From NCBI GenBank assembly GCA_039190745.1, contig JBCCXZ010000080.1, forward strand, positions 1-13,962: a stretch of 13,962 nucleotides of DNA. The letters run 5' to 3'. The notes beneath the pieces were generated by a model. The model was not told the DNA's origin, ran no database searches, and worked only from the letters and a program-made list of their open reading frames with translations. Numbering within the stretch: position 1 is the stretch's first letter; each line of letters begins with the position of its first letter. The position numbers were made by a program, and so were the translations under genes. The DNA comes from Planctomycetota bacterium (GTDB lineage: Bacteria > Planctomycetota > Planctomycetia > Pirellulales > Lacipirellulaceae). This document shows positions 2,292 through 13,771 of the stretch, one piece after another.

Positions 2292-3449
2292 ATGATCTTC
2301 AAGATGGCATCCAACCTCCAAGCACACCGCATCCTCGACGCCGCCGCCAACCGCGCCGCCGAGGGCCTCCGCGTCGTCGAAGACTACGCACGCTTCGTGC
2401 TCGACGACGCCCACCTCACCCGGCTCGTGAAATCGCTCCGGCACGACCTCGCCGAGTGCCTCGCCGCCCTGCCCCGCCCCGAGCGGCTCGCCTCGCGCGA
2501 AACCCAGGCCGACGTCGGCGCCGAGATCACCACCCCCGCCGAAACCAACCGCACCGACGCCTGGCAGGTCTGCGTCGCCAGCAGCGAGCGCGTGAAGCAG
2601 TCGCTCCGCAGCCTCGAGGAATTCGGCAAGATCGAGGACCCCGACTTCGCCGCCGGGATCGAACGCCTCCGCTACCGCCACTACACGCTCGAGCGCGCCC
2701 TGGGCGTCACCACCACCGCGGTCGACCGGCTCGAGTTCTGCACCCTCTGCGTGCTCGTCGACGGCGGCGACACGCCCGAGGCATTCACGGCGCTCGTGCA
2801 AGAACTTGTCGCCGCCGAGACGCCGATGATCCAGCTCCGCGACAAGCGGCTCGACGACCGAGAGCTGCTCGATCGCGCCCGCACGCTGGTCGAACTCACC
2901 CGCTCCCCCTCTTCTATAGGAGGCCTCTCCGAGGCCGATGACGCATTGATTAGCCGCGCGGAATCGGGCTCAGAGAGCCCTCCCACAGGCCCTTCGGCTA
3001 ACCGGAACCGCACGCTCGCGATCATCAACGATCGGGCCGACATCGCCGCCGCCTCCGGGGCCGACGGCGTCCACCTCGGCCAGGAAGACCTGCCCGTGAA
3101 GGCGGCCCGGGGCATTGTCGGCCCCCGCGCGCTCGTCGGCGTCTCGACGCACGCCATCGAGCAAGCCCGCGCCGCGGTACTCGACGGGGCCGACTACCTC
3201 GGCGCCGGCCCGACGTTCCCCTCGCAAACCAAGTCGTTCGACGCCTTCCCCGGCCCGGCGTACCTGGCCGAACTCGCCGCAGAGATCCGGCTGCCCACCT
3301 TCGCCATCGGCGGCATCCACGCCGAGAACCTCCCCGAGGTGCTCGCCGCCGGAGTGGGTGGCGTCGCGGTCAGCTCCGCCGTGACCAGCGCCGCCGAGCC
3401 CGGCGCCGCCGTCCGCACACTCCTACGATCCCTCTCTCGATCGCGGTAG
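2292..3449 (+). CDS. thiE: Thiamine-phosphate synthase, long form with an N-terminal helical extension, carrying a ~32-35 aa REP-derived insertion
   Basis: N-terminal RILDAAANRAAEGLRVVED...K.LRH...SLRSLEEF domain; ThiE barrel motifs IQLRDK, IINDR.DIA, ADGVHLGQED, VGVSTH, DYLGAGPTFPSQTK, FAIGGI. The start could also be ATG 2304. Confidence 0.93.
   Translation: MIFKMASNLQAHRILDAAANRAAEGLRVVEDYARFVLDDAHLTRLVKSLRHDLAECLAALPRPERLASRETQADVGAEITTPAETNRTDAWQVCVASSERVKQSLRSLEEFGKIEDPDFAAGIERLRYRHYTLERALGVTTTAVDRLEFCTLCVLVDGGDTPEAFTALVQELVAAETPMIQLRDKRLDDRELLDRARTLVELTRSPSSIGGLSEADDALISRAESGSESPPTGPSANRNRTLAIINDRADIAAASGADGVHLGQEDLPVKAARGIVGPRALVGVSTHAIEQARAAVLDGADYLGAGPTFPSQTKSFDAFPGPAYLAELAAEIRLPTFAIGGIHAENLPEVLAAGVGGVAVSSAVTSAAEPGAAVRTLLRSLSRSR
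2914..2988. repeat. GTAG-type REP doublet (REPIN-like), 75 nt, in frame within thiE
   Basis: Left arm 2914-2939 is ctataggaggcctctccgaggccgat and right arm 2963-2988 is atcgggctcagagagccctcccacag (21/26 inverted match), with a 23-nt spacer. It has the same layout and length as 13697-13771. Confidence 0.9.
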
Positions 3450-3450
3450 T

Positions 3451-3624
3451 GTGAACCACGGAGGCACGGAGGACACCGCGCCAAAAAAAGGCGACGGCCA
3501 AGCCAGAACATGAGATCGACGCTTATCCTCACTAATCAGATTAGCGGAGATTAGTGCAGATTAGTGTTCTAGTTCGTCTTCTTTTTCTCGTTCCTCCCGT
3601 GAACCCCGCGTCTCCGTGGTGAAC
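3451..3624. repeat. Composite intergenic repeat: outer inverted CACGGAG-type arms (3451-3480, ~3597-3624) enclosing a CTAATC/GATTAG palindrome (3506-3569)
   Basis: gtgaaccacggaggcacggaggacaccg pairs imperfectly (18/25) with ccgtgaaccccgcgtctccgtggtg. The inner gaaca...actaatc-a-gattagcggagattagtgcagattagtgttc has a decayed left arm. Confidence 0.85.
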
Positions 3625-3695: not shown

Positions 3696-4778
3696 ATGCT
3701 CCACGCAGTCATCATGGCCGGCGGCGCCGGCACCCGCTTCTGGCCCGCCAGCCGCAAGGCCACGCCCAAGCAGCTCCTGCCGCTGGTCGGCGACCAGACG
3801 ATGATCCGCCAGACCTACCTCCGGTTGGCCGGCCTCACGCCCGCCGAGCGGACGCTGATCGTCACCAACAAAGCGCTCGTGCCCGCCGTCGCTGAAGAGC
3901 TCCCCGAGCTCCCAGCCGCCTCGGTCGTCGGCGAGCCCTGCAAGCGCGACACGGCCCCCTGCATCGGGCTAGCCGCCCTGCTCGTCTCGCGGGACGACCC
4001 CGACGCCACAATGGCTGTCATGCCGTCGGACCACGTCATCCGCGACGACGCCCGCTTCCGCGACGGGCTCAAGCAGGCCGCACTGCTCGTCGAGGCCGAC
4101 CCCACGCGGATCGTCACCTTCGGCATCCGCCCCACCTACGCCGCCCGCAGCTTCGGCTACATCCAACGCGGCACCGGCCTCGATACCGCCGGCGACGAGG
4201 CCCCCGCCTACCAGGTGAAGCAGTTCCGCGAGAAGCCCGACGCCGCCACCGCCACCGAGTACCTCGCCTCGGGCGACTTCTACTGGAACTCCGGCATCTT
4301 CGTCTGGAAGGCCCAGACCATCTTGGACGCCCTCGCCGAACGGCAGCCGCAGATGCTCGAGCACCTCAAGAAGATCGGCGAAGCCTGGGGCGCCGACCAG
4401 CAGCAAGCCGTCTTCGACGCCGAGTTCGCCGCCATCGACGGCACCTCCATCGATTACGCCGTGATGGAGCACGCCCAGAACGTTGCGGTCATCGAGGCCC
4501 ACTTCGATTGGGACGACCTCGGCAGTTGGCAGGCCCTCCCGCGGCAGCTCGGCAGCGACCACCACGACAACACCGTCGTCGGCAAACACCTCAGCGAGAA
4601 CACCACCGGCAGCATCGTCCGCACCTCGGGCGACCACCTCGTCGTCACGCTCGGCCTGAAGGACTGCCTCATCGTCCACACCGACAACGCCACGCTGGTC
4701 GCCAACAAGCACGACGAGGAAGCGGTCCGCAACATCGTCAAACAGCTCCAAGAACGCGGCTGGACGGACTACTTGTAG
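3696..4778 (+). CDS. manC: Mannose-1-phosphate guanylyltransferase
   Basis: AVIMAGGAGTRFWPASRK.TPKQLL, GEPCKRDTAPCI, MPSDH, FGIRPT...FGYI, FREKPD, YWNSGIF, SIDYAVME, WDDLGSW and a C-terminal beta-helix. There is no cupin isomerase domain. Confidence 0.95.
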   Translation: MLHAVIMAGGAGTRFWPASRKATPKQLLPLVGDQTMIRQTYLRLAGLTPAERTLIVTNKALVPAVAEELPELPAASVVGEPCKRDTAPCIGLAALLVSRDDPDATMAVMPSDHVIRDDARFRDGLKQAALLVEADPTRIVTFGIRPTYAARSFGYIQRGTGLDTAGDEAPAYQVKQFREKPDAATATEYLASGDFYWNSGIFVWKAQTILDALAERQPQMLEHLKKIGEAWGADQQQAVFDAEFAAIDGTSIDYAVMEHAQNVAVIEAHFDWDDLGSWQALPRQLGSDHHDNTVVGKHLSENTTGSIVRTSGDHLVVTLGLKDCLIVHTDNATLVANKHDEEAVRNIVKQLQERGWTDYL

Positions 4779-4798
4779 GAGGCCTCTCCGAGGCCGAT
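4773..4798 (+). repeat. Single GTAG-type REP arm overlapping the manC stop codon
   Basis: tgtaggaggcctctccgaggccgat (4774-4798) is identical to 13698-13722. Its TAG (4776-4778) is the manC stop. Confidence 0.9.
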
Positions 4799-4822
4799 CC
4801 CACTCTGTTTGCAGGAAGAGCT

Positions 4823-4996
4823 AACCACGGAGTCACAGAGGACACTGAGACAAACGCAGGGAAAGGAAGAGGTAAGGAACACTAATCGGCACTAATCTGC
4901 GCTAATCAGATTAGTGAAGATTAGCGTAGATTAGTGTTCCCCTGTCTCCCGTCCCCTGCCCCCTGTCTCCGTGCCCCCCGTGCCTCCGTGGTTCAC
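4823..4996. repeat. Composite intergenic repeat: CACGGAG-type inverted arms (4823-4850 and 4966-4993), inner palindrome 4876-4940, TCCCCTG heptamers 4938-4965
   Basis: The outer arms match 23/28 as inverted repeats. The inner sequence is ggaac-actaatcggc-actaatctgc-gctaatc-a-gattagtgaa-gattagcgta-gattagtgttcc. Four degenerate tcccctg units follow it. Confidence 0.92.
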
Positions 4997-5026
4997 TCCC
5001 CTTCGATTCGACTCGGCCGACAAGCC

Positions 5027-5493: not shown

Positions 5494-5532
5494 CAGGGGA
5501 CAGGGGACAGGGGACAGGGGACAGGGGACAGG
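5494..5532 (+). repeat. Perfect heptamer tandem repeat (CAGGGGA)x5 + CAGG
   Basis: Read directly from the sequence, starting 9 nt after the yqgF stop. Confidence 0.97.
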
Positions 5533-5541
5533 AAGATGGTA

Positions 5542-5644
5542 GAACACTAATCCGCGCTAATCGTCACTAATTCGATTAGTGGAGATTAGCGTCAATTAGT
5601 GTTCCCTCCTTTTCTTCTTTCGTAGTTTTCGCGCATTTCGTGGT
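5542..5644. repeat. CTAATC/GATTAG palindrome (5542-5604) plus a three-unit TTTCGYR arm (5618-5644)
   Basis: gaacactaatccgcgctaatcgtcactaatt-c-gattagtggagattagcgtcaattagtgttc, followed by tttcgtagt-tttcgcgca-tttcgtggt. Confidence 0.9.
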
Positions 5645-7806: not shown

Positions 7807-8556
7807 ATGAATCGCACCTTGAGTATTTGGCCCAGAGTAGCGGTCTGCATCGCAGCGCTCACCGCAGCGACGCAGTTAACCCACACAGCCCAGGCTGTGA
7901 CCGTCCCCTTTGTTGAAGACTTCAACACCGACTCCGCCAACTGGGGTAATTTCGAAGCGGCTAACTCCAACCCGAGCATCCCCGGCTTCCAGACAGGCGG
8001 CCCCGCCAACTGGGTCTCCTCCGGCGGCCCCGACGGCAGCGGCTACGCCTCGGTCGACTTCGCATTCGGCGATTTCACCAGCCCCTTCGGCGGCCCGACG
8101 CTGTTCCGCGGCCAGGACGAGTTCAATTCCTCCAACGGCGATTACATCGGCGATTGGCTCACCAACGGCATCCGCACGGTCCGTTACAGCGTGCGCCACA
8201 ACGCGCCTGTTCCCATCCCCCTCGGCGTGCGTGTTTCGACTCCTTTCAACTTCCCAGGCGCCAGCGCCGTCATCCAAGGCCCGCCCGTGCCGCCGAACAT
8301 CTGGACCGAGCTAGTGTTCGACCTTAGCCCTGGCAGCCCGCAGATTGTGAGCACCAGCGGACAACCCTACAACTCGATCTTCGCCAACGTGGGGCACATT
8401 CAGATTACTTCGAGTATCCCTACAGCTTTGATAGGCGACCCGACGGTCTACACCTTCGACCTCGACAACGTCACCGCCGTGCCCGAACCAGCGGCTGTGA
8501 GCATGCTCACCCTAGCTGCGGTTCTTGGTCTCGGACGCCGACGGATCCGAAACTAA
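7807..8556 (+). CDS. PEP-CTERM exosortase-sorted surface protein
   Basis: Signal peptide ending AQA, a beta-rich G/S/N/F-rich body, and C-terminal VPEPAAVSMLTLAAVLGLGRRRIRN. Confidence 0.9.
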   Translation: MNRTLSIWPRVAVCIAALTAATQLTHTAQAVTVPFVEDFNTDSANWGNFEAANSNPSIPGFQTGGPANWVSSGGPDGSGYASVDFAFGDFTSPFGGPTLFRGQDEFNSSNGDYIGDWLTNGIRTVRYSVRHNAPVPIPLGVRVSTPFNFPGASAVIQGPPVPPNIWTELVFDLSPGSPQIVSTSGQPYNSIFANVGHIQITSSIPTALIGDPTVYTFDLDNVTAVPEPAAVSMLTLAAVLGLGRRRIRN

Positions 8557-8579
8557 CCCCGGTCTTTATTTGACATGTC

Positions 8580-8620
8580 CCTGCCGAGTGTAGCCGCCGC
8601 CAACACTCCGGCAGGTCTTT
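8580..8620 (+). terminator. Stem-loop after the first PEP-CTERM gene (partial terminator or mRNA stabiliser)
   Basis: cctgccg-agtgt (8580-8591) pairs with acact-c-cggcagg (8603-8615) and is followed by a pyrimidine run tctttcctcccctttcctttt. Confidence 0.5.
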
Positions 8621-8662
8621 CCTCCCCTTTCCTTTTGGATCCACGCTAGGAGCTGATTCAGA

Positions 8663-9652
8663 ATGGACCCCATTCTCTTGCGGCGCACCAGGAACAGAAA
8701 TTCCCACTTGCACACCGGCCCCCTCCGGGCTGGCCCCTTCCGGGCTGGCAGAATCACAGCAGCAGCGTTCCTCGCTGTCGCGGTGTCGCTCACCGCCAAT
8801 CAGGCCGAAGCCCTTCGAGCCACAGCATTTGAAGAACCGACGCTCTGGACGGTCGGCGACCCCGACAGCACCTTCCAAGAGTGGGTCGCCCAAGAGCTCG
8901 CCTTCAACGCGCTTACCCCCACACCCGCACTATTGAGCAACGTCAACCCCACGATCACTGCCGACGCGCTCCTCAGTGTCCAGTCGCCCGGCTTCCGCGC
9001 CGGTTCCGGCGGATACTATGCGTTTGCGGGACCCTACGGCGTCAACGCCGAGATCTACAACCACGGCGGCTCGGAAGGCTCGGGAGCGCCCTACCCAGCC
9101 GGTTCTGGCACGCACGTCATAGTTCAAACGCACGCATCTCTAAACGGCGGAGACGGCGTGCTGACAGACCAGATGCAATTGACCGACTTGAGCGGTAACA
9201 TCCTCGCCGGCGGGGCGAACGAAGACCTGCTCCGGGTGGAGCAGCTCGCGACGAACCTTTGGGGAAGCTCGTTCGGCGTCGTGACCGTCGAAGAGCTAGT
9301 CTTCGAATTCTTCCTCCCAGACTTCACGGGCGACTTTATCGTTGACTCAACGTCGAACTCCTCCTCAAGCTTCCAACACATGCGGGTGGATACATTTATC
9401 GTTGCCGGCAGCGGTCCTGACCCAGACCTCGACGCCGACCTTGACGTCGATGTCAGCGACCTCATCGCCTGGCAGAACTCCGCATCCCCCGACGCGGCGG
9501 GCCTCTCGGCTTGGCAGAATGCGTTTGGCGTCGGCGCCGCGACTACCGCGGCCATCTCCGCAGTGCCAGAACCCGCAACGGCCGGGCTAATCTGCACCGC
9601 GCTCGGACTCGCTTTGCTCCGGCGCCCCTCAAACCGTGGACGAGGGTGCTGA
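8663..9652 (+). CDS. PEP-CTERM surface protein with a dockerin/EF-hand-like motif before the sorting signal
   Basis: AGGAG RBS upstream, a signal peptide ([18 protein letters not shown]), [17 protein letters not shown]...WQNAFG, and [21 protein letters not shown]. Confidence 0.88.
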
Positions 9653-9662
9653 GCAAAGAACC

Positions 9663-10607
9663 ATGAATAATTCCCGAAAACAGACCACAGCCCCCCGCCG
9701 CCTCGGCGGCAGGGGCTTCACGCTTGTCGAGCTGCTGGTGGTAATCGCGATCATCGGCGTGCTCATCGCGCTTCTGCTGCCGGCCATCCAGGCCGCCCGC
9801 GAGGCCGCCCGCCGCACTTCCTGCACCAACAACCTGAAGCAGATCGGGCTGGCCACTCTCAACTACCACGACGCGCGCAAGGAGCTGCCGCCCGCCAGGA
9901 ACAGGATCGGCCTCGGCGACATCGCAATCCCCGAGAGCGCCCTGCTCTTCCTGCTCCCGTACCTCGAAGAAGCCAACCGGTATGTCCGGTACGACCTAGA
10001 CGCCGAGTTTGGAACCCTCGACTCGGTCAACGACTTGGTCACCCATACGCTCGTGCCGATTTACCTCTGCCCGTCCATGGTCTACGAGTGGGGCGGAGAC
10101 TCACCCGCACCAGGCAGCTACGTGGCGTCCACAGGCACAGAAAGGCCCTGGGACATCGTCGACCAAGCGCAGGTCCCGTTCCCGCTTCCGCCGGATTTCG
10201 ATTACGAAAGCCTCGGTCCCGGCGCGGGGCTCCACAACGGAGCCATCGCCTCCCGGCCGGCTATCGTGCGTATCCGCGACATCACCGACGGCACATCCAG
10301 CACCTTCGCCTTCGGCGAGAGCGATTACTTCGGCGGGCGGAGTGAGTCGGGCCCGATCTGGTCCGGGGGCTACGTCCCTAATTTCCAGGCCGCCACCTGG
10401 GGGCCGTTCAACCCCAAAGACCCGCCATCCACATTTCTAGAAACAGGCCCCATTACCACCGCCTTCCGCAGCGACCACCCGAACGGGGCCCACTTCCTGT
10501 TCGTGGACGGGGCCACCCGGTTTGTTGCTGACGGCGTCGACGAAGACCTCCTCGACGCCTACGCTACGAGAGCAGGCGAAGAAGTTTTCACAAACGAAGG
10601 CCTCTAG
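9663..10607 (+). CDS. DUF1559 family prepilin-type N-methylation protein with an H-X9-DG C-terminal motif
   Basis: [62 protein letters not shown]...[14 protein letters not shown]. Confidence 0.96.
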
Positions 10608-12950: not shown

Positions 12951-13005
12951 TTGCCACTGGCCACCCCCGCCGCTAACCTGGATGTGTACAAAATTACACA
13001 TCAGG
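12951..13005 (+). promoter_or_regulatory. Sigma70-like promoter with a perfect palindromic operator over the predicted start site
   Basis: TTGCCA(12951)-N17-TAACCT(12974), then GATGTGTA-caaaat-TACACATC (12981-13002). Confidence 0.6.
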
Positions 13006-13028
13006 AGCCCCGCCGGGGGAACACAGCC

Positions 13029-13538
13029 ATGGCCAAGACCGGAAGACCCCGCGCACTCAACGACGAAAAACGCGGCCAGATCTGCGGGCTCGTAGCCTCC
13101 GGCTGCGCACTCGATCACGCCGCCCGACACGTCGGCTGTTCCGTCCGCACCATCCGCCGCGAAGCGACTCGCAACCCCGCCTTCGGCGAGTCACTCCGCC
13201 GGGCCGAGCTCTCCGCTCAGCTGCAGCCGCTCAACTCGCTCCGCGCCGCGGCCTCGAAGAACTGGCGGGCCGCTGCCTGGCTGCTCGAACGCACCAAACC
13301 CGACCAGTTCGCCCGCCGCGATCCCTCGGCCCTCACGCCCGACGCCCTCAGCGCCGCGATCGACAACCTCCTCGAAGCGATCGTCGACGAGATCGACGAC
13401 GCCGACACCCGCGGCCGCGTCTACCGCCGCATCCTCGCGATCAGCACCCGCGAGCAGCTCGAAACCGCCGCTGCGAGCCACAACCCCAAGCGGCCACCGA
13501 GAATCCCCGACCCCAACCGCGATCCCAAACAGAGGTAA
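13029..13538 (+). CDS. Helix-turn-helix protein resembling terminase small-subunit-like proteins (GRP...WRAAAWLLER)
   Basis: MAKTGRPRAL, HTH-like ALDHAARHVGCSVRTIRRE, and NWRAAAWLLERTKPDQF. GGGGGA lies upstream of ATG 13029. Confidence 0.8.
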   Translation: MAKTGRPRALNDEKRGQICGLVASGCALDHAARHVGCSVRTIRREATRNPAFGESLRRAELSAQLQPLNSLRAAASKNWRAAAWLLERTKPDQFARRDPSALTPDALSAAIDNLLEAIVDEIDDADTRGRVYRRILAISTREQLETAAASHNPKRPPRIPDPNRDPKQR

Positions 13539-13696: not shown

Positions 13697-13771
13697 ATGT
13701 AGGAGGCCTCTCCGAGGCCGATTACCGCCTCCAACTCTGTATGGAATCGGGCTCAGGGACCCTTCCCACAG
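13697..13771. repeat. GTAG-type REP doublet (REPIN-like), 75 nt, intergenic
   Basis: atgtaggaggcctctccgaggccgat-N23-atcgggctcagggacccttcccacag. The right arm differs at 3/26 positions from the thiE-internal copy. Confidence 0.9.

Follow-up and report, generated by a model that had tools for sequence, protein, structure and literature searches.

How does a palindromic repeat come to be read as part of a core enzyme, and does this reflect the repeat or the place in which it lies? The question is raised by thiE, which occupies 2292..3449 on the + strand of the window, by which we mean the whole 13,962-nt stretch of DNA analysed (contig C80 of G000, a genome of the planctomycete family Lacipirellulaceae).

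A REP doublet in the thiE reading frame

The gene encodes a ThiD2 domain fused to thiamine-phosphate synthase (Pfam ThiD2 and TMP-TENI). Its product scores 343.9 against NCBIfam PRK02615, above the cut-off of 335, and its start may lie four codons downstream, where the database gene call gives 381 aa. Between helix 189–204 and strand 242–246, we found a loop insert of 35 codons (2904..3008, + strand) that translates in the thiE frame as SPSSIGGLSEADDALISRAESGSESPPTGPSANRN. Within it lies a doublet made up of a left REP arm at 2914..2939 (+ strand, CC/GG stem variant, tag ATAG, read as (S)IGGLSEAD), a 23-nt spacer at 2940..2962 (+ strand) and an inverted right arm at 2963..2988 (– strand, GC/GC stem variant, tag GTGG) that reads ESGSESPPT on the + strand. 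A full doublet of the same REP family is found between genes at 13697..13771 (+ strand), recognised by its arm match and by profile search. Both doublets are 75 nt long, with 26-nt arms and a 23-nt spacer; the left arms are identical at 24 of 26 positions and the right arms at 23 of 26, and the spacer sequences differ. The original prediction had described an in-frame 75-nt doublet matching the intergenic element in arms, spacer length and total length, and this description is correct. Both copies that it named in the window are borne out, but it overlooked a third, a half copy at 4773..4810 (+ strand) whose tag supplies the manC stop codon and which is present at the same site in G001, a genome of the same genus. 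With a folding energy of –37.5 kcal/mol (z = –5.3), the doublet was equalled by 0 of 200 shuffled sequences.

In most relatives the loop at this position is short. The spacing from Q-R-K to ND is 65 residues in G000, the source genome, compared with 37 in G001 and 32 in 54 of the 111 parsed alleles of the bacterial family. The G001 orthologue is without the REP and has 90% and 86% identity to G000 on the two sides of the insert, and GC3 is 0.63 in the insert as compared to 0.90–0.92 (about 0.91) in the flanks. The ortholog alignment called for at the outset shows a short loop as the normal state and an insert without counterpart in G001, and these comparisons support a recent acquisition of the doublet by what was a short loop from helix to strand. 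The five extra loop residues of G001 were considered separately as a possible REP remnant; their DNA shows no clear similarity to the REP.

The expectation that the insert does not break the gene agrees with what we found: the frame is kept, and 13 of 13 checked ThiE motif residues, which have catalytic roles, are present, in motifs that are invariant or nearly so among homologues. The dN/dS of thiE against G001, with the insert excluded, is 0.24 (0.31 with another alignment); five neighbour genes range from 0.00 to 0.24, and manC, at 0.24, has the thiE value. An AlphaFold model built from 72 of 120 homologues, a set in which Lacipirellula and Bythopirellula proteins occur, has a mean pLDDT of 89 and a predicted intact TIM barrel, and its top Foldseek matches are solved ThiE structures. 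The insert appears in the model as a low-confidence loop (pLDDT about 50–62) from helix 2 to strand 3. A single-sequence AlphaFold run reached a pLDDT of 45 and was discarded. In TIM barrels, helix-to-strand loops lie on the face opposite the active site. The gene with its insert looks intact; the loop is predicted to be translated and disordered, and the enzyme likely still works.

The repeat family and its transposase

We found that the stem variants of this REP co-vary genome-wide: 81 exact-frame arms comprise 39 CC/GG, 32 GC/GC, three CT/AG, two CG/CG and five unpaired arms, so that the compensatory changes proposed for the arms extend to the family. The GTAG tag with a hairpin that had been proposed is likewise typical, with GTGG or GTAG at the start of 113 of 130 arms, but it does not hold for the thiE left arm, which is mutated to ATAG. 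Doublet length is 75 nt in 39 of 45 seed doublets. A profile made from 39 seed doublets detected 90 copies in G000, 68 of them at least 65 nt long, and 0 in the reversed genome, and the repeat is thus multi-copy, as anticipated. The arm pattern is found in 35 of 120 genomes of the bacterial family. At syntenic G001 sites, 12 of 23 are also occupied by a copy in G000, an indirect sign that the REP family has turned over since the two genomes split. With a GT(A/G)G tag and a short hairpin, inverted doublets at conserved spacing, many copies and a mostly extragenic location, the family has the features of GTAG REPs and REPINs.

A further claim was that this family invades housekeeping proteins, with GGLSEAD...ESGSESPPT as its peptide signature, and here the data point the other way. 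When copies were placed on our own codon-model gene calls (2,844 genes in G000), 85 of the 90 were intergenic, four lay over a gene 3′ end and one, that in thiE, was gene-internal. In G001, G023 and G107, 0 of 98 copies (the best matches in 90 loci sampled from these genomes) were internal and one was read into a C-terminus, and a GTDB-wide scan gave 0 gene-internal loci of 26, which come mostly from one genome and probably overlap with the 98-copy sample. A peptide search with the insert region matched the ThiE of G000 alone among five candidates scored (lengths 211–674), a weak negative. In an RPE-like family, a large proportion of the copies would be read in frame, spread over numerous unrelated proteins, and these counts do not show that pattern. 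Rickettsia palindromic elements (RPEs; Ogata et al. 2000 and 2002), according to the part of PMC10969869 covered here, are also palindromic repeats translated in frame in conserved proteins, which for thiE is predicted from sequence; however, RPEs are about 150 bp long and nearly half coding, whereas the thiE REP family is 75 nt long, about 1% coding and linked to a RAYT.

That a RAYT gene flanked by this REP should exist proved true of relatives but not of G000. A G010 protein scores as a REP-associated tyrosine transposase (NF047646, 107 bits, cut-off 80), inverted arms flank its gene, and homologues are found in 13 of the 120 genomes, not including G000. Inverted arms of the thiE-REP type are present at all 11 RAYT loci with parsed flanks (two further loci were unparsed); most of these arms are a third stem variant, and only G061 has the variant of G000. 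In the G000 assembly (3.89 Mb, 125 contigs, 95% complete), no Y1 transposase or RAYT was found by PF01797 or by the family-genome search, and tblastn with the G010 protein gave a best E of 0.28. With the G010-type RAYT as query, the gene was also not found in the three genomes richest in this REP. The patchy set of RAYT genomes shares one conserved junction for most loci (L153–L164), between leuS-like and glgC-like genes that we take, from their motifs, to be leuS and glgC; in G000, this junction is a short spacer with neither RAYT nor REP. The thiE REP doublet was likely placed by a RAYT transposase that is no longer found in G000.

This arrangement resembles REPtrons, or RAYT (TnpA-REP) systems, in which a HUH-Y1 transposase is flanked by inverted REPs and REPs persist without the gene, but it differs from those presented in the part of Quentin et al. 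(2018; PMC6006769) covered here in the missing G000 gene and in the third stem variant of most relatives' flanking arms. GTAG REP dimers inside ORFs, coding 20–30 aa and reaching their highest number in Opitutus terrae, which belongs to the PVC group, appear in the portion of Di Nocera et al. (2013; PMC3733652) on which we draw, and loop placement of intragenic GTAG REPs is already proposed there, so the novelty first attached to an in-frame REP was overstated. Those REPs and the thiE REP share the GT(A/G)G tag with a hairpin, inverted dimers, a mostly intergenic location and tags that supply stop codons; dimer spacers are variable there, and spacer sequence varies between copies here. In that portion of PMC3733652, REPs in genes of the same category lie at different sites, except in recB of two Xanthomonas species, and serial refilling of one loop by five repeat families is not among the cases described; four of its supplements gave 0 matches to thiE or to the REP arm sequence. 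In the literature searched, which covers few subscription journals, we found no account of a thiE insertion, of the repeats of Lacipirellulaceae or of several repeat families occupying a single loop in turn.

Five repeat families in one ThiE loop

The slot that holds repeats in the ThiE loop is a stronger result than the single REP insert. We surveyed the bacterial family with a short-loop thiE query, as an insert-bearing query would favour long-loop matches; loop frequencies from the insert-query homologue list have that bias and were not used. The short-loop query found thiE in 115 of 120 genomes. We took 114 alleles, leaving out G072 (split over contigs), and 111 were parsed: 66 are short (spacing below 35), 11 have 3–6 extra residues, seven are long and unassigned (G028, G034, G088, G093, G117, G127 and G141, not counted as carriers), and in the other 27 a repeat can be recognised. 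Short extensions without a repeat assignment are seen in the three unparsed alleles.

In 27 of 114 genomes, the ThiE loop thus contains a palindromic repeat that is multi-copy and belongs to one of five families, a count that treats A and D as separate. Family A is found in 12 alleles as a QPPAPPG..PPAEPGA doublet, family B in eight (NPSPSPSLQGRG), family D in five (SPDLARSGL), family C in one (GTVP..GLSPF) and the REP of G000 in one. Families A, B and D are each multi-copy in the carriers searched. Family A occurs in 62 of 120 genomes; in five carriers each, D has 20–67 copies and B has 3–32 matches, and in G126 a C-related motif is matched 19 times. Spacing in the repeat-bearing alleles ranges from 41 to 106, and eroded loop remnants are common (G095, G102, G079). 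In the database protein P0052, A lies upstream of B, stacked in one ThiE loop, a plausible intermediate of repeat replacement. The ThiE loop of G142 (L069) is longer by 74 residues, at a spacing of 106, with a B-type doublet, a long spacer and an intact frame. Reading-frame breaks are present in 5 of the 27 repeat-bearing alleles compared to 2 of the 84 others (Fisher p = 0.009, with kin that are not independent). In three of the genomes with a broken thiE (G100, G114 and G118), manC is fragmented as well, an indication of assembly error there; this is not the case in G025 and G115.

We calculated a tree from thiE with the loop removed (59 rows including 22 carriers, LG+G4, quick search; G115, G118, G123, G137, G142 and most plain alleles were left out), and on these 59 rows the loop state changes at least 13 times. 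G133 (family D) and G143 (family B) are close sisters, joined with SH-aLRT 99 (end branches 0.025 and 0.033, respectively), and a group made up of G139 (B), G132 (A) and G134 (A) has SH-aLRT 98. For the A carriers as a whole (p-AU 0.0004) and the B carriers as a whole (p-AU 8e-8), a single clade is rejected; it is not rejected for A when limited to genera g22 and g10 (p-AU 0.34) or for the D carriers (p-AU 0.12). On this phylogeny, insertion events may be as few as five to seven: five at minimum, and seven if the A and B rejections stand for separate gains.

Two further genes were compared with thiE. The manC-like mannose-1-phosphate guanylyltransferase gene (3696..4778, + strand), a control without insert in G000, has five orthologues, all in genus g22, with one loop occupied by either of two additional multi-copy repeats, in a sample of 20 of 116 orthologues picked mostly by length. 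This slot is of the same kind as that of thiE and weaker. The repeat-collecting loop of manC sits after an FGYI-x-RG motif (L361–L367; G107, G109, G126, G117 and G110). There is no such slot in thiG, whose 112 full matches in 115 genomes all span an equal length. With thiE excluded, A lies inside other long ORFs in 7 of 57 sampled elements and B in 4 of 31, and Pfam domains were found in 8 of 10 scanned ORFs with an internal A or B; for D, 0 of 15 copies are internal to ORFs. These candidate A and B insertions suggest that in-frame repeats are a family-wide habit, with thiE apparently hit most often of the three genes compared; three genes are too few to call it exceptional. Candidate in-frame A or B repeats were seen in a Kdo transferase, a VWA/YfbK protein, a proline dehydrogenase, a BamB-like propeller, a BlaR1-type peptidase and an NAD synthase (L265, L273, L279, L289, L348 and L354).

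Possible roles of tolerance, supply and selection at the loop

The most likely reading, and one that we think probably right, is that RAYT-driven neutral insertion is filtered by the tolerance of the loop and brings no new function. Repeats would land across the whole genome and most gene-internal landings would be purged. The helix-to-strand loop of ThiE, away from the active site, would tolerate 10–70 extra residues, so that in-frame insertions could persist there. It would accept in-frame additions rich in Pro, Gly and Ser, and, once lengthened, could take further insertions and deletions, leading to serial replacement of repeat families. A repeat-rich neighbourhood may raise the supply of insertions. 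Against this reading we count the excess of frame breaks among repeat-bearing alleles, the failure to find a RAYT in G000 and the REP-richest genomes, and the small number of insertion events (as few as five to seven) that the tree allows. Nor does neutral tolerance alone account for the more frequent hits in thiE than in manC or thiG.

If the insertions were instead favoured, a hairpin in the middle of the thiE mRNA or a longer loop would tune ThiE output or ThiD2 contact, and lineages would have convergently recruited whichever repeats were available into a selected landing pad. The convergence of five families on a single ThiE loop is consistent with this, as are the long loop in 13 of 14 examined g3 alleles, the spacing of 52–53 shared by several D and B alleles, the Pro-rich frame used by all intact A alleles, and the strong fold of the doublet in a window in which Rfam gave 0 matches and thus no riboswitch match. 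We nevertheless regard selection for the insertions as unlikely, given that 66 of 111 alleles are short-looped, that spacing varies so widely among repeat-bearing alleles, that remnants are often eroded and that the neighbouring manC behaves alike. Should a selected landing pad prove true, it would be a case of REP domestication inside a core enzyme that tunes thiamine synthesis. The opposite possibility is that the insertions are mildly harmful and were kept under relaxed selection on thiE, for example through thiamine salvage, with some alleles decaying. This would fit the frame breaks and a thiE dN/dS (0.24–0.31) that tops six neighbouring genes, but relaxed selection would scatter inserts and put them out of frame, and among 120 homologues long inserts are found almost only at the ThiE loop. 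In addition, the G000 allele is intact with all of its checked motif residues, its end branch (0.059) is no longer than that of G001 (0.08), and, for three of the five broken alleles, other genes of the genome are fragmented too. We regard harm under relaxed selection as distinctly unlikely.

Patchiness could also have arisen from few insertions, about one per repeat family, followed by precise loss and by recombination of thiE segments between lineages. A single clade is not rejected for D or for A in g22 and g10, B lies at an equal offset in G139 and G143, and 22 of 56 inner tree branches are open. Against this, no fewer than five insertions are needed to bring in five families, the tests above reject a single clade for A and for B, and position and form differ by genus (B is single or a doublet), and we consider so small a number of events doubtful at best. 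An assembly artefact, in which the insert results from a repeat-mediated mis-join, is very improbable. The assembly is in many contigs, and the insert is spanned only in run X1, which is possibly the source sample: one X1 contig covers 2200–3700 with one difference, which argues against a mis-join but is not independent support. In runs X2 and X3, the repeat is present and the stretch is represented by short fragments, none of which spans it. Also against a mis-join are the unique spacer, the preserved frame, the match of both flanks to the G001 orthologue and the equivalent inserts of relatives.

Whether neutral insertion into a tolerant loop or another reading applies, close relatives provide a natural replicate experiment, with empty, filled, stacked, swapped and eroded alleles of one core-enzyme loop. 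With these alleles one can test how REPs select their targets or persist there, and whether loops derived from repeats are carried along neutrally or provide material from which proteins evolve. The alleles also mark a position in ThiE that tolerates insertions (at most about 70 extra residues, in G142), and they serve as a warning that repeat-bearing loops distort alignments and gene calls in Lacipirellulaceae.

The window itself is rich in repeats. It holds three REP copies in 14 kb compared to a genome mean of 0.23 per 10 kb (a post hoc comparison), and C80 has the highest REP density among the contigs carrying it. Another 65-nt palindromic repeat (ACTAATC..GATTAGT) is found between genes of the thiE-manC-ruvX run at 3507–3571, 4877–4941 and 5542–5606; its 32-nt arm has only four genome matches. 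The same spacers contain AACCACGGAG-type small repeats (3453–3477, 4818–4852 and 4964–4998) and a GGGGACA heptamer array (5496–5528), which indicates that several repeat families are nested there. Next to the intergenic REP doublet, the ORF at 12951–13538 has a weak match to a terminase small subunit (E 5e-4, below the cut-off). From their translations, the genes at 7807–10607 presumably encode two exported proteins with C-terminal VPEP-type sorting motifs and, after them, a protein with a prepilin-type N-terminus. Elsewhere in G000, TCCGCAA heptamer arrays (48 matches genome-wide) lie in frame in two called genes, at G000:C20:47807-47831 and G000:C36:22810-22827, where they encode NPQSAIRNPQS-like peptides.
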